DNA from: Candidatus Buchananbacteria bacterium CG10_big_fil_rev_8_21_14_0_10_33_19
GTDB taxonomy: Bacteria > Patescibacteriota > Patescibacteriia > 2-01-FULL-39-33
Direction of reading: 5' to 3'
NCBI GenBank assembly: GCA_002773855.1
Contig: PEZY01000012.1
Location: 367,847-431,846 of the forward strand
Length of the DNA stretch: 64,000 nucleotides
The translations under genes and the position numbers were made by a program. Under the pieces are notes generated by a model. The model was not told the origin of the DNA. It was given only the letters and a program-made list of their open reading frames with translations, and did no database searches. This document shows, piece after piece, positions 724 through 48,356 of this stretch. Within the stretch, counting starts at the first letter, position 1, and each line of letters starts with the position of its first letter.

Positions 724-2904
724 TTATAAAGTTAAAGGTTCTCCCCTACTATAATCATTTTCAAAACCATTTTGAATTTTAATAACCTCTGATTCCCAAT
801 TATTACCATACAATTCTAGTAATACATCACTGGTGGCATAATTAATAACTGCTCCATCAGACACAATATAAATTCTAGGACTGTTATAAAATCTAATTAA
901 TTTACTATCTGGCTTCACGGTTATATGCTCTCCTTCTTCTAAAGCATCAAAATCCTCTTGAGATATAGTTTCTAAATTTTGATCAGCCCAAGTACCTGTA
1001 TGCCAAGTCCAATAAGTTACACTATTAGGATATAAATGTCTTTTGCCATCATCGGTAATATGATAAACGGCATCACTATCAGCGGTTTTAATTACTCGAC
1101 CACTAGCATAGGAATAAATCTTTACACCTAAAACCTGTGGGGCTGGAGCGGATCCTCCACCACCACCTCCGCCACCAGCACTAGCAACAATAATATTCCA
1201 AGTAGCCGTAGTTGGATTGGTACCTATATCTTGCCAATTACCAGCTAAATCCTGACCAATAACTTCTAAGGTGTGTGAACTAATAGATAAAGTAGTTAAA
1301 GTTATTGGTGTCGCAATAGCCGTCGCTCCACTCACGGCTCCACCGTCTAAGCGATATTTATAATTAAGAACATCAGTGCCAGCTACTGTAATACTAAAAC
1401 TATTATCAGTGGTTTCGGCGGCTGGTGTATTGGATAAAGTAGATGTTGGAGCAACAGTATCAATTACTATGTAGCGACTACCAAAATAAACATCATCTGC
1501 GCTCAAAGTAGTTTGATGATTTCCAGCCTGATCATAAATATCGCCAGTGATACCCGATATATACAATCTGTCTGAATTATAACCATTAATAATAGAATAC
1601 TCGCAGCTAGCCGTGGTAGCTGGTGCTGAGGTAATAGCCAAATTACAAGAACCAATGTCAAAACTAATAGTTGAAGTGGCAACTAATGAAACAGCTTCAG
1701 AAAATGTTACCGTAAAAATTGCCGAACCCACCCCATAACTACTATCCGCTGCCGGATCAGTTAATCTTACTGTTGAAATTAGCGGCAGAACACCATCAAT
1801 AATAATATCAGAATTATCATCAATGTTTTCGTCTCTAATCTTGTAATTTAATAATATATTAGTTGAAGCCACACTATAAATACTACCAGTAATACTACTC
1901 ACACTTAAATCGGCTGTAGAATCATTTGCTCCCACTACATAATTACAAGAACCAGTGGTTAATGGTGATGAAGTAGCTATTTGAAAAGCACAACTACCCG
2001 TAGCACTAGCATTGAGATTAATAGTAATATCACTACTAGAATAAACTGACTCGGAAAATGTTAAATGAATAGGTACAATATCACCAATTTTATAGCGACC
2101 ATCACTAGCTGTACTAGTAGCCACAATAAGTCTGGGACTATCAGTATTAATGTGAATGCCATTGGCTAAATTACTATTAATATAACCAAAGGTGTTGCCA
2201 GCTAAATCATATATATTACCAGTAATACTACTGACACTTAAATTACTAGCATCATCGTTTGCCCCCACTATATAATTACAAGAACCAGTAGTTGATGGTG
2301 ATGATGTAGCTATCTGAAAAGCACAACTAGCTGTGGAACTAGCATTAAGATTAATAGTAATTTCACCGCCAGCATAGACTGATTCTGAAAATTTAACATT
2401 AATAGGAATAATATCACCAGCATCATAATAATCATTTATAACTGTGGTAGTTATAGTGGCATTAGGATTGCTAGTATCTACAATAATATTTTTTAACGAC
2501 GACATATAAACAGCCGGGACAAACGATGTCATAGCATTGCCAGTCTCATCATATATATCACCAGTAAGATAACGCAAATCCAAATCATTAGAACTATCAC
2601 CATTACTAACCGTATAAATACACGATGCGGTGGAACTAGCCGATGATTGATCAATGGAAAAATAACAACGAGTCAGCAAGCCTGATGTTAAAACTATAGT
2701 AGAAGTTCCTACCGTATAAACTGGCTCAGAAAAATTAACTCTAATTGTTATCTCATCTCCAGCTATGTAATAACCATCCGGACTATCACTAGTAATTTGA
2801 GTGATAGTGGGAGCTACTGTATCAACAGCTTCAACCGATTGACCTAGACCAAAAATTGCTAAAATAGCAACCACCATTATAAGTGGGTTTCTTACCGCTT
2901 TCAT
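724..2904 (-). CDS. Secreted surface protein with tandem ~100-aa Ig-like repeats, poly-Gly linker and a conserved C-terminal module
   Basis: Signal peptide (MKAVRNPLIMVVAILAIFGLGQSVEA); two near-identical internal repeats (…INLNAS.TASCAFQIATSSP.TTGSCNY.VGAND…); GGGGGGGGS linker; C-terminal ~130 aa homologous to the C-terminus of the 1352-aa protein at 9691-13749. Confidence 0.6.
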   Translation of the reverse strand: MKAVRNPLIMVVAILAIFGLGQSVEAVDTVAPTITQITSDSPDGYYIAGDEITIRVNFSEPVYTVGTSTIVLTSGLLTRCYFSIDQSSASSTASCIYTVSNGDSSNDLDLRYLTGDIYDETGNAMTSFVPAVYMSSLKNIIVDTSNPNATITTTVINDYYDAGDIIPINVKFSESVYAGGEITINLNASSTASCAFQIATSSPSTTGSCNYIVGANDDASNLSVSSITGNIYDLAGNTFGYINSNLANGIHINTDSPRLIVATSTASDGRYKIGDIVPIHLTFSESVYSSSDITINLNASATGSCAFQIATSSPLTTGSCNYVVGANDSTADLSVSSITGSIYSVASTNILLNYKIRDENIDDNSDIIIDGVLPLISTVRLTDPAADSSYGVGSAIFTVTFSEAVSLVATSTISFDIGSCNLAITSAPATTASCEYSIINGYNSDRLYISGITGDIYDQAGNHQTTLSADDVYFGSRYIVIDTVAPTSTLSNTPAAETTDNSFSITVAGTDVLNYKYRLDGGAVSGATAIATPITLTTLSISSHTLEVIGQDLAGNWQDIGTNPTTATWNIIVASAGGGGGGGGSAPAPQVLGVKIYSYASGRVIKTADSDAVYHITDDGKRHLYPNSVTYWTWHTGTWADQNLETISQEDFDALEEGEHITVKPDSKLIRFYNSPRIYIVSDGAVINYATSDVLLELYGNNWESEVIKIQNGFENDYSRGEPLTL

Positions 2905-2913
2905 ACTTTAAGA

Positions 2914-4698
2914 CTAAATAATTATTAAAATAATCAAAAGACTAATAAACACCAAACTAGATATTATCATCTTAAGATTTTGTTTTTTAAATTGAATAAA
3001 TATATTAATCAAGAGCGTTGCAACAATCAAACCTAACATTATTTTATAAATAGTCGCTGAAATCGAGAATAACCAATTAACATTGCCAGATTTACTATCT
3101 TTAGCAAAAAAATACTGTTGGGTTAAAGAAGCTTTAACTGGTTTAATGCCATCCCATGATACGTCGGTTGTTACTGAATTGCCAGCGTAGTCGGTCGCTG
3201 TAACACTAGGCAAAACCACTGGATTAAATAACTGTTCATTTTCTTGATTAAATATAATAGTGCTGCCAGTCCATTTGGTTGGCAAGCTAATATCTGGCTG
3301 AAGATCTATTTTATAATTACCAAATGAAACACTAGCGTTTTTAGTATCACTATCTAAGAAAACTTCAGCTCTAACTATTTTTTGCTCTTTGTCGTTAGCC
3401 TCTAGGACAAATAGTTTACTGGCTTCAATATTAATAGCTGGTGGAATTTGATCCAATGACACCCTATAAACATCTGAAGACAACGTTTTTGAACCATTAC
3501 TAGCTTCAAATCTTAAATTATTTTCACCTTCACTCAAAGACAAGCTAAATTCAAAATTACCGTCTTTAGAATTAGTTAACTCTAAATATTTTACATCATT
3601 TAAATAGACATTTAGTGTCTTAGCCGATACAGCTAGAACACTAAAATAAGTGGGATTTTCATTAACCACTGAATCATTTTTAGGATAAGACAAGATCGGC
3701 ACAGACAAAGAAGATGCAATAATCTTTTCACCAAAAACTTTTTGACTGGAATCACTAACAACAGTATTTTCATTTGGTTCTCGTGTTACTATATTAGCTA
3801 CCGGAATATCATTAACAGACCCAAAAAACTGAGCTACTAGCGTCGTATCATAACCATTAAACTTACCACTTACCACTCCCACACCAATTTCAGTAAAATC
3901 TGGATCAATTATATTAGCATAATGAGTCTTACTCTGAACCCAAGCATTAACCACGTCAGCCGCATCAACAAAACCCATGGCTAAATTTTCACCAGCCGTG
4001 CTATAAGTATAATTATTTTTCCGTAACCAATAACCTAACCCCTTCTTTTTTGGACTAACATGAGCAAAATACTGTTCAGTTAACATATCCTGAGCTTTTT
4101 CATAAGCGCCTTTATTTAGAACATCATTTTTGATCAATAAGTTTAAACCCAAACTACTTCTAATTTCATTGGTTAAATTTATAATTTTCTCCGCTTGCTT
4201 TTTAGAAACATCTGGCGTCACCCAAGCACTTAACGGTAAACTAACTACAAATATTACAATTAATAGTTTAATAGCAATAGCCGATACTCCATAAGCAAAT
4301 AAACTATTGGTTTTTAAAATTTTTGGTGAAAACTGATTACCTGAATAAGAAAAAAATAAATCCTTCAAATAACCACCACCTCTAGGATTTTTACCTTGTT
4401 TAATAGCCTCACCATCTGGCACACCATCACCATCAGAGTCAGGATTATTAGGATCGGTTTGATAAATTTTTATTTCTTCGTAATCAGAAATACCATCACC
4501 ATCCGAGTCGGGGTTATTGGATTTAGTGCCATAAAGCTTTTCTTGATAATCACTTAGACCATCACCGTCGGTATCAGCCATTATTCGAATTCTGTCTGAT
4601 AATTCTTTTACTTTTAGTTCTAATTTTTTAGACTTTAAATCAATATCACTTTTAGGTGTGACAATTATTTTTTTTCTACTTTTAATAGTCTTTTTCAT
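2914..4698 (-). CDS. Membrane-anchored protein with thrombospondin type-3-like Ca-binding repeats and a CAP/SCP (PR-1, YkwD-like) domain
   Basis: Three D.DGDG..D repeats (DTDGDGLSDYQE, DSDGDGISDYEE, DSDGDGVPDGEA); CAP motifs (HYANIIDPDFTEIGVGVV, GENLAMGF); internal and C-terminal TM helices. Confidence 0.6.
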   Translation of the reverse strand: MKKTIKSRKKIIVTPKSDIDLKSKKLELKVKELSDRIRIMADTDGDGLSDYQEKLYGTKSNNPDSDGDGISDYEEIKIYQTDPNNPDSDGDGVPDGEAIKQGKNPRGGGYLKDLFFSYSGNQFSPKILKTNSLFAYGVSAIAIKLLIVIFVVSLPLSAWVTPDVSKKQAEKIINLTNEIRSSLGLNLLIKNDVLNKGAYEKAQDMLTEQYFAHVSPKKKGLGYWLRKNNYTYSTAGENLAMGFVDAADVVNAWVQSKTHYANIIDPDFTEIGVGVVSGKFNGYDTTLVAQFFGSVNDIPVANIVTREPNENTVVSDSSQKVFGEKIIASSLSVPILSYPKNDSVVNENPTYFSVLAVSAKTLNVYLNDVKYLELTNSKDGNFEFSLSLSEGENNLRFEASNGSKTLSSDVYRVSLDQIPPAINIEASKLFVLEANDKEQKIVRAEVFLDSDTKNASVSFGNYKIDLQPDISLPTKWTGSTIIFNQENEQLFNPVVLPSVTATDYAGNSVTTDVSWDGIKPVKASLTQQYFFAKDSKSGNVNWLFSISATIYKIMLGLIVATLLINIFIQFKKQNLKMIISSLVFISLLIILIII

Positions 4699-24587: not shown

Positions 24588-25140
24588 TGTCTAGATAAAT
24601 CTATAAGCCGAATTCTGTTCCTGATGGGTCTGTCTCCAAATAGTCTTTTGTTTATAAGTTTTCACAATTTTGAAATAAATTTTTTAAACAATTTTTAAAG
24701 TTTAGTGGAGCTAAGCTGAAAAAATTTTTATAAAATTTAGACAAAATTTGGAAATTTTAACAAATATGCTATTTGGTGACAGACCCATACAAAGAGATGA
24801 CAATCTATCTGGATTAACTATTACTAGTTAATTCTAGCCCCCTACTATATTTGGGGTTGCACTAAGTAGAGTTTACCACGAACTGCCGGTCACCGACAGC
24901 TGAGTCACGTAGCTTTAGACTAAGGGGATATCCCGTTCTTATTCTAAAACATCATGACACTTTTCACCTTTCATTTGCCGAAGCAAACTAGTATTGTCTC
25001 TGTGGCACTGGTCCTAACTATACCTCGCGATATAGCTGGTGGGCGTTACCCACTACCATGACTTTAATCATAGTGATTAAAGAGTGTTCGGACTTTCCTC
25101 TCCGATTAAAACCGGAGTAGTCATCCAACTTATCTAGACA
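24588..25140 (-). ncRNA. rnpB: RNase P RNA (bacterial type A) with a long AT-rich insertion
   Basis: Ordered conserved elements on the minus strand: P1 (5' gucuagauaag / 3' cuuaucuagac), P3 hairpin, P4 5' strand GAGGAAAGUCCGAAC, GGUAACGCC, AGUGCCACAGAGA, GGUGAAA, GGUAAACUC, and P4 3' strand ACAGAAUUCGGCUUAU with compensatory GG/CC to AA/UU change versus E. coli. A consensus promoter puts the TSS at P1. Confidence 0.8.
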
Positions 25141-25723: not shown

Positions 25724-27451
25724 CTACTTAGCACTTTCCATTAAATCTACTATTTTTAGCTGTAATTCTTTATTACCGTTCCATTCATTAACTCCTATTT
25801 CAAAAACGACATCAATATTATCACCGACATTTAATTTGGCACACCAATCACCAAAAGAAAAACCAATCATTTTATGAATGACTGGATGATTAGTTTGACT
25901 AACCATCGCCCGTAAATGCTTGCCATCACTACCCACTGTTTGAACTTGTTCAATTTTTAAATTCCTAATCAAAAACAATGGCATATCATTAGCCTCGCCA
26001 AATGGTTCAAATTTTTCTAACTTATAATAAAAATTCCAATCAATATCTGCTAGTTCAATTTCGGCTTCAATTTTTAATATTTCTCGAAGATCAGCATCTT
26101 TTAAAGCCTCCGTAGCAATAGCTACCATTTTTTTATGAAAATTATCTAAATTTTCTTTACCAATAATCGTAAAACCACAAGCCTGTGGATGGCCACCAAA
26201 TTTTTCTAAATACTCACTACATTCACTTAAAGCACTAGTAATATCAAAACCATTTACACTTCGGCCAGAACCCACATATTTATCACCATCCTGAGATATA
26301 ATAATAGCTGGTAAATTATATTTATCACTAATTCTACCAGCCACCAAACCTACCACCCCCGGATGCCAACTTTCACCGGATGCCAACAATAATTTATCAT
26401 CTTTTATCTGACTAACGATTTTGTCAGCTTCTTTCATCATTGTCACTGTTATAGATTGTCGTCTAGTGTTTTCTTCTTCTAATTTTTGTACTAATTTATC
26501 AGATTCATCATCATTATCAGAAATAAGTAATTCAAAGGCTAGTGAAGCGTGATTTATTCGTCCAGCCGCATTTAGTCGTGGCACTATGCGCCAGCCAATA
26601 TATTGAGTATCCAGCTTACCGCTAAAATGATTAAGCTTTTCAACTATTTTCATAATACCCTTGCGTCTAGTTTTATCTAGAACAATCAAGCCATATTTTA
26701 CAAAAATTCGGTTTTCACCCAAAAGCGGCATAATATCTCCCACTGTGGCAATCGCTACTAAATCAAGCAGCCATTTATCAAAGCCAAGCGGTAATTTATT
26801 AGCCCATACAAACTCATCTTGAGTTTTGAGTAGTCCTTGAACGACCTTAAAAGCTACACCAGCACCACATAATTTTCGAAAAGGATACTGACAATCATTG
26901 AGTGATGGATTAATAATAGCATAAGCGTCTAACGGCAATTCCTGTGGCTCCTTATGGTGGTCGGTGACAATTATATCAACCTTATTTTTTTTAAACTCAG
27001 ATACTTCTTCTTTATTAGAAATACCACAATCGACAGTGACTACTAATTTATAACCACTATCACTTATTTCTTGAACCGCTGTCATATTCAAACCATAGCC
27101 CTCACCTTCTCGAAAAGGAATTCTAATGTCAACATCAGCGCCTAACTTTTTAAGCGCACTATAAATGACCGCCGTTGAACAAACACCATCAGCATCATAA
27201 TCACCATAAATCATGATTTTTTCTTTATCCTTAATAGCCTGAAGTATTCTAGTAGTCGCCTTTTTCATATCTGCAAACAAAAAAGGATCAGCAACTTGCT
27301 CATCATAATTAGGACTTAAAAAATCATTAATTGATTTTTTATCATCAAAACCTCGATTATGTAATAACTGTAAAATTATTTTGTTTTCAGATGGTAAAAT
27401 TTTCACTAAATCTCCACCCATAACCTCAGATACCTGCCATTTTTTATGCAT
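25724..27451 (-). CDS. recJ: Single-stranded-DNA-specific exonuclease RecJ
   Basis: DHH motifs (IMIYGDYDADGV; VTDHH), DHHA1 region, C-terminal OB-like domain. Confidence 0.8.
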   Translation of the reverse strand: MHKKWQVSEVMGGDLVKILPSENKIILQLLHNRGFDDKKSINDFLSPNYDEQVADPFLFADMKKATTRILQAIKDKEKIMIYGDYDADGVCSTAVIYSALKKLGADVDIRIPFREGEGYGLNMTAVQEISDSGYKLVVTVDCGISNKEEVSEFKKNKVDIIVTDHHKEPQELPLDAYAIINPSLNDCQYPFRKLCGAGVAFKVVQGLLKTQDEFVWANKLPLGFDKWLLDLVAIATVGDIMPLLGENRIFVKYGLIVLDKTRRKGIMKIVEKLNHFSGKLDTQYIGWRIVPRLNAAGRINHASLAFELLISDNDDESDKLVQKLEEENTRRQSITVTMMKEADKIVSQIKDDKLLLASGESWHPGVVGLVAGRISDKYNLPAIIISQDGDKYVGSGRSVNGFDITSALSECSEYLEKFGGHPQACGFTIIGKENLDNFHKKMVAIATEALKDADLREILKIEAEIELADIDWNFYYKLEKFEPFGEANDMPLFLIRNLKIEQVQTVGSDGKHLRAMVSQTNHPVIHKMIGFSFGDWCAKLNVGDNIDVVFEIGVNEWNGNKELQLKIVDLMESAK

Positions 27452-27669
27452 TGATATAAACTAAGTAATTATAAGAATAGATTGATTTTATCAAAGATAG
27501 TACTAATTGACAATTAATAACATTTTTAATATCATTGATAGTGTTATGAAAAAGAAAAAATTACAAAAATTTGCTTGGACAATTATTGTCATAATTATGA
27601 TATTATCTATGGTTATTTTTAGCTTATCTCCTATCTTATAAAGTCAAAATTCCAAGAAAGGACACTTAA

Positions 27670-28008
27670 GTGAACAGTGACAGGAAACATAAACTCGAAA
27701 TAACTGATTTAAAAAGACAGTTAGCTCGAGCTAAACGACGCATTAACGAATTAGAAAATGTCGCTCATATTCGTCGAGAAGCCTATGTTAATATCCGCGA
27801 TGACGCCTTTCATTTTTGTCAACAATGGTTGGAATGTTTAAAACTTTTTGATAATACTTGGCGATCAAGATTTGTAGCCAAAGAAGCTTGGTTTGAACAT
27901 TGTATGGAAGTTTTTCCAAAATCTGAAGCAGACTTAATGTCAAAAATGCATCAAAGTCGATTATTTGAAAATGGTGAAGTCCCACCAATCAAAAAACCCC
28001 TTAAATAA
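27670..28008 (+). CDS. Hypothetical protein (GTG start), Cys/His/Trp-rich
   Basis: AAAGGA RBS 8 nt before GTG; terminator aaaaaacccctt-aaata-aaggggtttt at 27990-28020; isolated plus-strand gene next to the lepA 3'-end duplication. Confidence 0.45.
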   Translation: MNSDRKHKLEITDLKRQLARAKRRINELENVAHIRREAYVNIRDDAFHFCQQWLECLKLFDNTWRSRFVAKEAWFEHCMEVFPKSEADLMSKMHQSRLFENGEVPPIKKPLK

Positions 28009-28032
28009 AGGGGTTTTATATTTCCTAAAATT

Positions 28033-28100
28033 ATTTTTTCAGCACTGCCAAAAAAGCATCTGATGGAATATCTACTTTTCCAATACTCATCATTTTCTTT
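28033..28100 (-). pseudogene. Displaced duplicate of the lepA 3' end (last ~20 codons + stop)
   Basis: About 80% nucleotide identity to 28961-29030; minus-strand translation reads KKMMSIGKVDIPSDAFLAVLKK* versus genuine LepA C-terminus KKMMSIGRVDIPSDAFLAVLRK*. Confidence 0.7.
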
Positions 28101-28448
28101 ATTAAAATTATTAAATAGTAAAATTTGGACGCAATACATAAAAAAATAATTTATTCGTTCCTTTAACTAATGTTTTTTAATGAGTAAAAACAATTTTTTT
28201 AATACCTTGTATATACCAATCCAAAAATCAAACCAACACCCTTTATTCCTTCTCCTAATATTCCACCTATATAAAATGCTATTGTATAAGCGATAAGTGA
28301 TATTAAAAAACATTTTAAAACTTACATGTCGCCAATCATTTTTGCTAGTTTCATAGTTTGATAAATTTATTTTTTATTCATATAGTTAGATATACTTTTT
28401 TATGTGATGTAGTCTGAAATTTCACTTCCTTATTATCTTTTTGGAAAT

Positions 28449-28814
28449 TTATTTTGTCTTTGTTGCTTTTGGATCAGGACCATATTTATTATCACCTTTT
28501 GTTCCGTCGGTAATTGCTATAATCAAACTATAAATCGGGATTAAAAGAAACCAACCACTTTTATTTACATCGTGCATTCTACGGACGCTTACTGCAATAA
28601 ACGGAATCAATGTAGCTAACTGATAAATGTAAATTAATATAATTTCCCAATATATTTCAGCATCAATTCCCATTATCCCTTCAATGAAACCAATAACAAA
28701 ACTAAAACCATAAACAATAATAATATTAAACAGAAAAAAATACCAATATTCTGCCCTGCGTGCACGACCACTGAATATTGCGTACTTTTTCAAAACTGAT
28801 AAATAGTAATTCAT
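28449..28814 (-). CDS. DUF805 family inner-membrane protein
   Basis: GRARRAEYW…, three TM helices, C-terminal GDNKYGPDP motif typical of DUF805/YhaH-like proteins; lies between the two lepA 3'-end copies. Confidence 0.65.
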   Translation of the reverse strand: MNYYLSVLKKYAIFSGRARRAEYWYFFLFNIIIVYGFSFVIGFIEGIMGIDAEIYWEIILIYIYQLATLIPFIAVSVRRMHDVNKSGWFLLIPIYSLIIAITDGTKGDNKYGPDPKATKTK

Positions 28815-28958
28815 AGTTATTTTTTAAAATTTAAAACTGATTAAATTATATCACAAACATAAATAATCTAAAATTATACACATATTATACAAAAAAACAT
28901 TAGAGTTATAGATACAGGGGATATTAAAGAAAATACAACTCCATAAAACTATTTTACT

Positions 28959-30746
28959 TTATTTTCTCAACACGGCTAAAAAGGCGTCTGAAGGAATATC
29001 CACTCGACCGATACTCATCATTTTCTTCTTACCCTTCTTCTGTTTTTCTAATAATTTTTGACGACGACTCCAATCACCACCATATAACTTTGCCGTTACG
29101 TCTTTTTTAAGAGCTGATATTCGCTCAGAGGCTATCACTTTACCCCCAATTGCCGCCTGAATTTTAACCACAAACTGCTGACGACTTAATTCATTTTTTA
29201 AAATATTAACTATTTTTTTACCAACTTCATTAGCCGTGTCCTTATAAGTAATCAAAGATAAAGCTTCAATTTTGTCCTCAGCTACTAGTATATCCATTTT
29301 TACCACATCAGCTCTTTGATGCTCATAATAATCATAATTTAAACTAGCATAGCCAGAAGACACGGATTTTAAACGATCATAAAAATCAACTATTAATTGA
29401 GTAAGTGGGACATAATAATGCAGGATTGCTACATCCTTATCCAAATATTCAGTATTAATATAAACTCCTCTTTTTTCAGTCGCCATTTGCATAATACCAC
29501 CCAAATATTCTTTAGGGGTAAATATATCTACTCTCATAATTGGCTCTTCAACACGATCAATAAAAGTTGGATCTGGAAATTCCATGGGATTATAAATCAT
29601 TTTTTCACTACCATCCTTATAAAAAACTTTATAAGCCACGCTCGGTGTAGTAACGATTAAATCCAAATCAAATTCACGACTCAATCTTTCCTGAAAAATT
29701 TCTAAATGCAATAAACCAAGAAAACCACACCGAAAACCAAAACCTAAAGCTTGAGAATTTTCTGGTTCATACATCAAACCAGAATCATTTAATTTTAATT
29801 TTTCTATCGCTTCTCTTAATTTAGAATAATCGCTCCCGTCCTTACAAAAAACACCAGCAAACACCATCGGTTTCACCTCTTGAAAACCTGGCAACAATTC
29901 TGCATTGGCGTTTTGCAAAGTAATTGTATCACCTACTTTTACCTGAGACACATCTCGTAAACCAGTTACTATATAACCAATTTCACCAGTTTCTAGTTTA
30001 CCGGTTTTAACATATTTAGGTGAAAAATAACCAACTTCAATAGCATGAGCTAATTTTTTATTCGAAACAAATTTTATTTGCTCATTACTTTTAATTTCAC
30101 CTTCAAAAACTCTAATATAAGCAATCACTCCCTTGTACTCATCATAAATAGAATCAAATATCAAAGCTCTTAAATCTTTTTTATCAGTAAAAACTTTGGG
30201 CGGTGGGACTAATTTAATAACTGCCTGCAACACTTCTGGCACACCTTCGCCGGTCTTAGCTGACACCTTATAAATTTCCTCCGGCTGACAACCCAATATA
30301 CCTACAATTTCCGCTAATACCTTTTCCACATTAGAATTGGGTAAATCAATCTTATTAATCACCGGAATTATTTCTAAATTTTGATCTAAAGCTAAATATA
30401 AATTAGCTAGGGTTTGAGCCTGAATACCTTGAGTCGCATCCACCAATAAAACTGCCCCCTCCACAGACATCAAGCTACGAGAAACTTCATAGGTAAAATC
30501 AACATGCCCTGGAGTATCAATTAAATTAAGCTCATAACCATCATAACTCATCCGCACTGGCTGTAATTTAATAGTAATACCTCTTTCCTGCTCAATATCC
30601 ATTTGATCCAAGAGCTGGGCTTTCATGTTTCTTTTATCAATTGTACCGGTTACTTCCAACATTCTATCAGCCAAGGTAGATTTACCATGATCAATATGAG
30701 CGATGATACAAAAATTTCTAATTTTTTCTTTATTTAAAACTGACAT
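28959..30746 (-). CDS. lepA: Elongation factor 4 (LepA)
   Basis: G-domain motifs (AHIDHGKST, DTPGHVDF, NKID), EF-G-like domains, unique LepA C-terminal domain. Confidence 0.9.
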   Translation of the reverse strand: MSVLNKEKIRNFCIIAHIDHGKSTLADRMLEVTGTIDKRNMKAQLLDQMDIEQERGITIKLQPVRMSYDGYELNLIDTPGHVDFTYEVSRSLMSVEGAVLLVDATQGIQAQTLANLYLALDQNLEIIPVINKIDLPNSNVEKVLAEIVGILGCQPEEIYKVSAKTGEGVPEVLQAVIKLVPPPKVFTDKKDLRALIFDSIYDEYKGVIAYIRVFEGEIKSNEQIKFVSNKKLAHAIEVGYFSPKYVKTGKLETGEIGYIVTGLRDVSQVKVGDTITLQNANAELLPGFQEVKPMVFAGVFCKDGSDYSKLREAIEKLKLNDSGLMYEPENSQALGFGFRCGFLGLLHLEIFQERLSREFDLDLIVTTPSVAYKVFYKDGSEKMIYNPMEFPDPTFIDRVEEPIMRVDIFTPKEYLGGIMQMATEKRGVYINTEYLDKDVAILHYYVPLTQLIVDFYDRLKSVSSGYASLNYDYYEHQRADVVKMDILVAEDKIEALSLITYKDTANEVGKKIVNILKNELSRQQFVVKIQAAIGGKVIASERISALKKDVTAKLYGGDWSRRQKLLEKQKKGKKKMMSIGRVDIPSDAFLAVLRK

Positions 30747-45223: not shown

Positions 45224-45257
45224 GGATTTTTTATCATATAAATATCTTCATAAACCT

Positions 45258-45481
45258 GCGACAATTAAAAAATTTAAGGAGAAGATGAAACGAGAGCCCT
45301 GGCGATTGGGCGTCGTCTACATCCAAAATTTTCAACTGTTTGAACCATTTTCGACATATCTAGAATAATGAAAATGGTGAGTTTTGAAAATTAGCCAGGC
45401 GAAGTTTTAGATTCGACTATAAATTTTTTACTGTCGCGATTTTTGCGGTACTTTTTCTAAAAAAGTACCAAGGTGATTTAG
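45258..45481. repeat. Copy A of a ~225-bp hairpin-rich direct repeat (downstream of uvrA)
   Basis: About 85% identical to 48125-48356; conserved blocks gcgacaatt…aaggagaagatgaaacgagagccct.gcgattgggcgt.gtctac…gttttgaaaattagc…cgaagttttag.ttcgactataaattttttactgtcgcgatttttgcggtactttttctaaaaaagtacca. Confidence 0.75.
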
Positions 45482-48124: not shown

Positions 48125-48356
48125 ATAAATTAATGCGACAATTTTAAAATTTAAGGAGAAGATGAAACGAGAGCCCTAGCGATTGGGCGTTGTCTACGCC
48201 CAAAATTTTCAATGTTTGAGAAACTTGTTCACTTATTTAAATAAAAAAGTTTCGAGTTTTGAAAATTAGCGGGACGAAGTTTTAGCTTCGACTATAAATT
48301 TTTTACTGTCGCGATTTTTGCGGTACTTTTTCTAAAAAAGTACCAATGTGATTTAG
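48125..48356. repeat. Copy B of the ~225-bp direct repeat (between uvrB and uvrA)
   Basis: See copy A; contains hairpins gggcgttgtctacgccc, cgaagc…cttcg and ggtactttttctaaaaaagtacc. Confidence 0.75.

Follow-up and report, generated by a model that had tools for sequence, protein, structure and literature searches.

Genomic islands that occupy the 3' ends of tRNA and tmRNA genes are bounded by a direct repeat corresponding to the 3' part of the target, which stays functional. In Escherichia coli K-12, prophage e14 (and phage 21) has this relationship with the protein-coding gene icd: the working gene ends in one copy of a repeat and a second copy, icdC, is stranded at the far boundary, with differences between the copies confined almost entirely to synonymous sites and two conservative replacements. 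Excision of e14 can recombine the two icd ends (PMC13626634). For rhs, contact-dependent inhibition (CDI) and type VI secretion system (T6SS) loci, an integrase-free displacement of gene 3' ends has been proposed, in which incoming DNA is held by homology to the conserved 5' portion of a gene, brings a 3' end with its cargo and leaves the old end orphaned (PMC5361080). Here we analyze a 64-kb stretch of DNA (hereafter the window, to which all unprefixed coordinates refer) from a genome of the uncultivated Candidatus Buchananbacteria (Patescibacteria). In this genome the 3' end of lepA, the gene encoding EF4, is present twice, bracketing an insert that carries a gene for a DUF805 membrane protein.

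Compared directly, the icd/icdC repeats are 165 nt long (153/165 identical), with the copy that ends the working icd located within the e14 prophage, and differ in nine synonymous and two conservative (D/E) codons, with 1, 0 and 11 differences at the three codon positions. The lepA locus resembles icd in that repeats equal to the 3' end of the target gene lie at both boundaries and the target open reading frame (ORF) is intact. In contrast, e14 spans 15.2 kb and encodes intE and xisE, whereas the insert described here measures 0.86 kb, is flanked by a 69-nt repeat of 83% identity, and contains no tyrosine or serine recombinase gene in its 859 nt (only DUF805 and a broken 51-codon ORF). An initial reading made from the window alone (the sequence-only reading) had recognized the pattern of an integrating element that restores the 3' end of its target; this signature, as seen at icd/icdC, is indeed present, but neither an integrase nor any element gene accompanies it. 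Islands at tRNA and tmRNA genes differ further in having RNA-gene targets and an encoded integrase, and the present locus involves none, the single tRNA returned by Rfam and ARAGORN-type scans being distant. With C-terminal displacement the locus shares a conserved 5' part that is continuous with the recipient gene and an old 3' end orphaned downstream; at rhs, CDI and T6SS loci, however, a new toxin tip and immunity gene are acquired and function changes, while here the two end peptides are nearly identical and the cargo is an unrelated membrane protein. Finally, integron cassettes and clusters of attC sites lacking integron integrases (CALINs) provide a parallel for the cargo, since DUF805 homologues (66-74% amino-acid identity) are each followed by a 110-165-nt repeat with the layout R''(ATAAC)-L''...L'-R'(GTTAT). 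The window differs from these in having neither an intact attC (best covariance-model match 8.2 bits, E=10) nor intI, and insertion of cassettes by IntI does not generate a 69-nt target duplication such as the one found here. The event is therefore of a known kind at a new target gene and in a new phylum, unusual for its small size, for the lack of a recombinase and for its cassette cargo.

Duplicated lepA ends and the insert between them

The minus strand of the window encodes ackA, murJ, lepA (28959-30746), DUF805 (28449-28814), recJ (25724-27451) and rnhA, and a convergent gene of 112 aa (27670-28008, plus strand) lies between DUF805 and recJ. A repeat search identified a single direct repeat of 69 nt, at 28031-28099 and 28959-29027, whose copies are identical at 57/69 positions (83%) and spaced 928 nt apart. 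The duplication of the lepA 3' end in the sequence-only reading, placed there at 28033-28100 and 28961-29030, is thus real, with boundaries refined by 1-3 nt. Both copies lie on the minus strand, in the lepA reading frame, and end in TAA; the repeat corresponds in length to the last 22 lepA codons plus the stop, opens with a 17-nt identical stretch and extends to the stop. The distal copy encodes the peptide KKMMSIGKVDIPSDAFLAVLKK followed by a stop, and the genuine LepA C-terminus, encoded by the proximal copy, is KKMMSIGRVDIPSDAFLAVLRK followed by a stop. LepA itself retains the complete EF4 domain set (GTP_EFTU, EFG_C and LepA_C), and its 595 aa equal the length of its homologues P0121-P0123. 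The features of the locus, in the direction of lepA transcription, are as follows.

28959-30746, minus strand: lepA (EF4), intact, 595 aa, Pfam GTP_EFTU, EFG_C and LepA_C, 95% identical to P0121
28959-29027, minus strand: proximal, functional lepA tail (...IGRVDIPSDAFLAVLRK, stop), with two K-to-R states absent from the five closest relatives
28950-28958, minus strand: stub AGTAAAATA, the nine nt adjoining the proximal stop, like the lepA 3' untranslated region (UTR) of relatives (L097: TAAATATAAGTAAAATATAAAACCCC); matched by eye, short and only suggestive
28933-28949, minus strand: GTTTTATGGAGTTGTAT, a possible L'-R'-like 3' half of an attC upstream; a weak match from a MAFFT alignment, not statistically supported
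28815-28872, minus strand: cassette leader with a promoter-like site, TTTAGA-16-TATAAT plus TG (28872-28845), conserved with DUF805 cassettes elsewhere
28449-28814, minus strand: DUF805 (YhaH-like) membrane protein gene, 121 aa, PF05656 E=8e-28, nearest homologues outside the species 74%
28388-28448, minus strand: 3' flank like the start of an attC, with R''-like CACATAAA (28399-28406) and L''-like AAGTATATCT (28388-28397), 77% nucleotide identity to L090 for ~60 nt past the stop
28202-28354, minus strand: 51-codon small hydrophobic (membrane) ORF with an in-frame TAA (MKLAKMIGDM, stop, VLKCFLISLIAYTIAFYIGGILGEGIKGVGLIFGLVYTRY, stop), with no homologue in the compared loci
28100-28201, minus strand: AT-rich non-coding right end of the insert, abutting the distal tail at a non-homologous junction (...TTTTAATA / AAGAAAATG)
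28031-28099, minus strand: distal, stranded lepA tail (KKMMSIGKVDIPSDAFLAVLKK, stop), amino acids identical to the LepA ends of P0121 and P0123
27993-28017, both strands: bidirectional intrinsic terminator serving the 112-aa gene and the lepA-DUF805 transcript, its AAATATAAAACCCC motif kept after lepA in relatives
27670-28008, plus strand: convergent 112-aa gene of unknown function, the ancestral lepA neighbour, with homologues directly after lepA in L002, L094, L095, L097, L098 and L099

The distal tail lies outside any long ORF, having in-frame stops upstream and only a 20-codon ATG ORF, and 22 nt lie between its end and the stop codon of the 112-aa gene that converges on it, the bidirectional terminator being placed between the two; the proximity of the displaced copy to that terminator was already apparent in the sequence-only reading. 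Known RNA families produced, across 27300-29200, only sub-threshold chance matches at the terminator. Between the copies (28100-28958, 859 nt), DUF805 is the sole intact gene, as had also been noted; its protein matches PF05656 at 97.5 bits (cut-off 25.7) over profile positions 1-111 of 111. The same arrangement occurs on 24 independently assembled contigs, and all seven of the seven checked are identical across 27400-29100. Nor is the second copy a chance resemblance: an equivalent self-scan of 79 other lepA loci detected no second tail copy at 42/69 matches or above.

Divergence between the two tails

The 12 nucleotide differences between the tails comprise nine synonymous changes and 3 nt within two K/R codons, falling 2, 2 and 8 at the three codon positions, with no indels; the earlier observation that the displaced copy keeps the lepA frame and departs from it only by R/K changes thus holds. 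The partition between 13.7 synonymous and 52.3 non-synonymous sites is strongly skewed (Fisher test, p=4e-6). Furthermore, when 12 random substitutions were simulated, at most 1.5e-5 of 200,000 simulations kept the stop with two or fewer amino-acid changes, a ceiling that holds under both uniform and AT-biased mutation.

The tails differ at 9 of 13.7 synonymous sites, a level as high as or higher than that found genome-wide against the sister species L094, for which lepA, recJ and murJ of the window give a proportion of synonymous differences (pS) of 0.55-0.59 and a corrected divergence (dS) of ~1.0-1.2. Because this divergence is at the level of that from L094, a pseudogene formed in situ at that age would be unrecognizable: a neutral copy would since then have lost ~40% of its positions and accumulated indels, a recent duplicate would be near identical, and neither expectation fits. 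Only separate evolution inside working lepA genes, followed by recent joining, accounts for the two tails, and the pattern indicates that protein-level selection acted on them in separate genomes within a single clade. This agrees with the sequence-only reading, which had favored recombination with DNA of a related lineage over random decay, and it is supported both by the synonymous pattern and by a three-way comparison with L094. Whichever copy is the stranded one, it has undergone no amino-acid change, stop or frameshift since the event.

Related genomes and the ancestral arrangement

The gene order murJ-lepA-recJ-rnhA is conserved in most of 80 species-level genomes. A protein search yielded LepA relatives much closer than those in this genome set, with identities of 95% (P0121/L094), 90% (L098), 89% (L099/L100), 89% (L095/L096) and 87% (L097), and a related species (P0123, L100) is present in the same sample, 3300004210. 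In L094, L095, L097 and L099, a spacer of 18-33 nt separates lepA from the convergent 112-aa gene and contains the AAATATAAAACCCC terminator motif. Since this spacing and terminator match the surroundings of the distal copy, it is the distal copy that holds the ancestral position of the lepA end. Far from all relatives sharing the duplication, the outcome that the sequence-only reading had named as its refutation, none of the five closest carries DUF805 or a second lepA tail at lepA (0/5); the empty site is present in these five genomes, and the region is otherwise collinear, gene for gene, with L094. This comparison indicates that the 928-bp unit is an insertion specific to this species or lineage.

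In L098 an unrelated 431-nt insert (2603-3033) with a 74-aa ORF sits between lepA and the 112-aa gene, with no duplication of the tail. Within the clade, the spacer between these genes seems to act as a minor hot spot for insertions, the L098 insert being independent.

The 112-aa gene of the window has diverged unevenly. Positions 27626-27905, covering the N-terminal two-thirds of the gene and its promoter region, are 50-72% identical to L094, compared with 80-93% in the flanks, and the 112-aa protein is 66% identical to its L094 counterpart with a non-synonymous divergence (dN) of 0.23, as opposed to 95% for LepA, 88% for RecJ and a dN of 0.03-0.07 for the other proteins. The patch would reflect either recombination with DNA from outside the clade or very fast evolution, and, given its presence, the lepA locus appears to be recombinationally mosaic. 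Between the 112-aa gene and recJ, positions 27506-27625 are 88-93% identical to L094, above the level of the neighboring genes; this stretch contains a 44-codon hydrophobic ORF (27507-27641) and, being so conserved, may hold a genuine small membrane protein gene or a regulatory element.

Evidence on the native tail

Counted over the 69 nt, matches number 57 between the proximal and distal tails, 60 between the proximal tail and L094, 61 between the distal tail and L094, and 61 between the distal tail and L095. The two tails and L094 form an unresolved trichotomy within one clade, and the codon ATT at tail nt 31-33 occurs only in these three, the other relatives having ATA or ATC; the equidistance and the shared codon together place the donor within that clade. 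The two tails have no derived state in common against L094, and the private branch of each amounts to ~6 changes. At the protein level, the LepA ends of the five relatives all read ...GKVDIPSDAFLAVLKK, the amino acids of the distal copy, so that K/K is the ancestral state and the R/R of the proximal copy is derived. At the nucleotide level, the proximal tail has GAC GCC TTT TTA in common with L094, and the distal tail CCA and CTG (nt 58). Along the flank of the distal tail (28099-27906), identity to L094 is at the normal level of 80-93%.

We lean, without great confidence, towards the proximal tail having come with the insert and the distal tail being the resident one. Import of the proximal tail is favored because the alternative needs a rarer event that imports only a redundant tail, and DNA free of the insert would normally delete it. 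The suggestion in the sequence-only reading that the distal copy is the displaced original stands as regards its position, which is the ancestral one, and is only somewhat more probable than the reverse as regards the tail itself. A higher G+C content at third codon positions (GC3) in the proximal tail (0.41, against 0.25 for lepA overall) was considered as a sign of foreign origin and withdrawn, since the working tails of relatives have values of 0.41-0.53. Likewise, the divergence of the 112-aa gene was discarded as a sign that the distal tail had been imported with its flank, as the patch lies ~200 nt away with L094-like sequence in between.

The DUF805 cargo and attC-like arrays

The exact DUF805 protein was found in this context only, and no homologue above 74% identity was detected outside this species. 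Homologues occur after a Mur ligase gene (Parcubacteria GW2011_GWA2_38_13b, L091-L093), after efp (L111), next to a uracil-DNA glycosylase (UDG) gene and tRNAs (L088), in L090, a contig that also bears transposases of the IS200 and IS3 types, and in the short contigs L112-L114. Similarity between the insert and L090 extends over 475 nt at 77%, including ~42 nt upstream of the gene (the TGTGATATAAT promoter-like leader) and ~60 nt downstream. In L090, L093 and L111, the flank downstream of DUF805 begins a 110-165-nt imperfect inverted repeat that recurs after each neighboring ORF and consists of an outer pair ATAAC...GTTAT, an inner 11-bp stem and a central CCCAAATTT. The repeats lie at the following positions.

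L090: 528-642, 1130-1293, 2196-2321 and 4535-4699, attC-like repeats
L093: 5384-5493, 5771-5934, 7080-7225 and 8522-8640, attC-like repeats
L111: 2638-2796, attC-like repeat

Six copies of the repeat define 19 pairs, 90% of them paired and eight with compensatory changes; none of 500 shuffles reached the observed score, and slid controls collapsed. A covariance model built from these six sites recovered sites on which it had not been trained, after adh_short (70 bits) and a 342-aa gene (58 bits) in L093 and after DUF805 in L111 (72 bits). The L093 array (GW2011_GWA2_38_13b) lies between murE and rplU, and no integrase is visible alongside any of these arrays. As the geometry of the repeat is that of an integron attC (R''-L''...L'-R'), DUF805 can be regarded as a gene cassette in attC arrays, and these comparisons indicate that the cargo of the insert is a fragment derived from an integron-type cassette. 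This cassette nature had not been recognized in the sequence-only reading. The window retains the cassette leader, the promoter, the ORF and the R''-L'' half (CACATAAA...AAGTATATCT, 28388-28406), the remainder being gone or decayed, and the covariance model found nothing significant in the 64 kb.

Upstream of the gene, likeness to lepA loci stops at the stub 28950-28958, and the adjoining GTTTTATGGAGTTGTAT was aligned by MAFFT with the L'-R' of the attC that precedes the DUF805 cassettes of L090, L111 and L112. Downstream, the broken 51-codon ORF (28202-28354) may be a dead second cassette gene. The insert looks like an arbitrary excerpt of a cassette array situated just downstream of a lepA, with no defined unit ends.

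The insert lacks a recombinase in cis, and neither it nor the collinear 6 kb on either side contains any integrase, excisionase, phage or integrative and conjugative element (ICE) gene. Neither intI nor attI was found near the insert, or within 5 kb on either side of the L093 array in Pfam-annotated gene calls. In four unrelated contexts, DUF805 homologues are cassettes beside intact attC-like sites and the end of the neighboring gene is not duplicated; the notion of DUF805 as an element that routinely duplicates the end of its target was accordingly rejected on the evidence of L088, L090, L093 and L111. In L111 (1217-2604), the DUF805 cassette lies ~480 nt downstream of efp, a translation factor gene whose end is not duplicated; a complete attC follows the cassette, but on its upstream side there is just an L'-R' half. 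The attC-like DUF805 cassettes in Parcubacteria and related contigs suggest integron-like arrays in reduced genomes, which may be of wider interest than the duplication itself; in the literature library searched, there was no paper on integron arrays in Candidate Phyla Radiation (CPR) bacteria.

Proposed route of insertion

We give about an even chance to a recent horizontal insertion by homology-anchored C-terminal displacement, with DNA from a sister Buchananbacteria lineage, and we infer both the route of recombination and its orientation from the comparisons above. The donor DNA would have carried the end of a lepA gene with a few nt of its 3' UTR, together with part of a cassette array (DUF805, the dead small ORF and decayed attC parts), pairing homologously with the resident lepA on one side and being joined non-homologously on the other, at codon 573. 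This would correspond to homology-facilitated illegitimate recombination or, equivalently, to a small circle integrating through the tail by a Campbell-type single crossover. As a result, lepA would have remained full length, ending in one tail, and the other tail would have been stranded beside the old bidirectional terminator. Transcription of DUF805 would start at its cassette promoter or continue from lepA by read-through, and would stop at the old terminator; given the promoter-like site at 28845-28872 and the lack of a terminator of its own, its transcripts should end at 27993-28017, with the distal tail forming part of their 3' UTR. Recombination between the two tails could delete the insert, leaving a chimeric lepA end.

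Displacement fits the sister-lineage donor, the related species in the habitat, the mosaic locus and the ragged, cassette-internal ends of the insert. The locus preserves a clear and datable trace of DNA exchange between sister species of the CPR, whose members are unculturable and whose recombination biology is known only from sequence, and it illustrates how a conserved translation gene can receive foreign DNA at its very end and still remain intact. The stranded tail serves as an internal clock, its intact peptide and frame contrasting with a dS of ~1.1 to the sister species L094.

Several observations weigh against this account. Experimentally, homology-facilitated illegitimate recombination usually deletes recipient DNA and leaves no 69-nt anchor duplication (summarized in PMC5361080), and the architecture of the locus is exactly that made by a site-specific integrase. 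Homology ends abruptly at 28099/28100, with no clear microhomology at the junction. The two K-to-R changes could have arisen in either lineage, and in GC3 the working tails of relatives are like the proximal tail and unlike the distal one (0.18). The search for a donor was negative: at 90% identity, the clusters of DUF805 and of LepA hold this species only, and a degenerate-tail scan of metagenome contigs returned eight ordinary lepA genes, none with R/R. In the same search the best homologue of the 112-aa gene reached 71%, and one viral DUF805, at 58%, was uninformative.

The most direct alternative, which we hold to be possible if doubtful, is integration of the e14 type, in which an element with its own tyrosine or serine integrase and an attP mimicking the last 69 nt of lepA supplied the new end, and later deletions left 859 nt together with both att repeats. 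The architecture is identical to icd/e14/icdC of E. coli K-12, the repeat begins in a 17-nt identical stretch and reaches the stop, and a tail borne by the element would be under protein-level selection once integrated, which would explain the synonymous pattern. The 17-nt identity is, however, expected from codon constraint, as AAG AAA ATG ATG AGT AT is also identical in L094 and L099, and a cassette-array cargo with partial attC looks like an arbitrary breakpoint. Against it also stand the lack of integrase, excisionase, phage and ICE genes in the insert and its collinear surroundings, and the lack of a second case among 100 lepA loci, a second tail being absent from 79, 5 and 8 others. A lone lepA tail is likewise absent from 2.9 M viral contigs, and the lepA loci and viral contigs scanned showed neither of the expected signs of mobility, an identical element at lepA in another genome or a free attP form. 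A literature search for lepA as an integration target gave nothing relevant, and in enlarged lepA-recJ gaps of 13 other Patescibacteria no integrase was obvious in ORF translations, inspected without a Pfam scan. The recombinational route is preferred over such a decayed integrase element, on evidence that is not decisive between them. A variant that we consider improbable would make the insert, now or until recently, an integrase-free mini-element of Patescibacteria, a cassette-array fragment using a mimic of the lepA end as attachment site and moved in trans by a host or integron recombinase; if true, it would be a gene-end-targeting counterpart of integrative mobile elements exploiting Xer (IMEX) and a route for integron cassettes into housekeeping loci of reduced genomes.

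The displacement could also be read in mirror image, with a native proximal tail, a cassette fragment inserted earlier ~10 nt after the lepA stop, and a foreign distal tail delivered by a fragment of a relative free of the insert, running from 69 nt before the lepA stop to the terminator and the 112-aa gene and joined illegitimately to the end of the insert. The codons GAC GCC TTT TTA that the proximal tail shares with L094, the typical GC3 of that tail against the atypical value of the distal one, the evidence from L098 that insertions just after the lepA stop occur in the clade and the other mosaic patch, in the 112-aa gene, are compatible with this. Nevertheless, we hold it to be possible if doubtful, like the integrase alternative: over the distal tail, the terminator and the 3' third of the 112-aa gene, identity to L094 is at the native level of 80-93% and the divergent patch is not contiguous with the tail, the distal tail also shares CTG (nt 58) with L094, and the event, in which incoming DNA would normally delete the insert, would be a rarer one that brings nothing selectable. 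In-situ tandem duplication of the lepA end, for example as a long target-site duplication at the insertion of DUF805, with the distal copy then decaying neutrally, would be the simplest way to obtain a direct repeat, and the changes specific to the distal copy run mostly towards A/T, as mutational bias does. The simulations (P<=1.5e-5) and the branch lengths lead us to reject it as very improbable, because the tails share no derived state against L094, each branch is as long as the L094 divergence (dS ~1.1), and the loss of ~40% of sites expected of a neutral copy over that span contrasts with a distal tail free of indels. Lastly, metagenome assemblies can collapse or chimerize strain variants, and a related species is present in the same samples, yet a chimera of the lepA ends of two strains, arising in assembly or binning, is hardly credible for an arrangement found on 24 contigs (up to 565 kb) from different samples, assemblers and archives, the seven checked being identical over 1.7 kb, with an insert of 859 nt of unique sequence.

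Other features of the window

Two intergenic segments of ~225 nt (45257-45481 and 48134-48356), 2.9 kb apart, are 92-95% identical, and a minus-strand gene (864 aa and 613 aa, respectively) ends just upstream of each. They could represent a duplicated 3' UTR, a terminator or a small RNA, and no Rfam family matched them at gathering score. A bacterial RNase P RNA of class A (126 bits) is located on the minus strand at 24757-25136, between rnhA and a 189-aa gene that is missing from L094. In addition, a 252-nt direct repeat of 78% identity, at 1867-2118 and 2200-2451 (spacing 333 nt), is probably internal to a gene.

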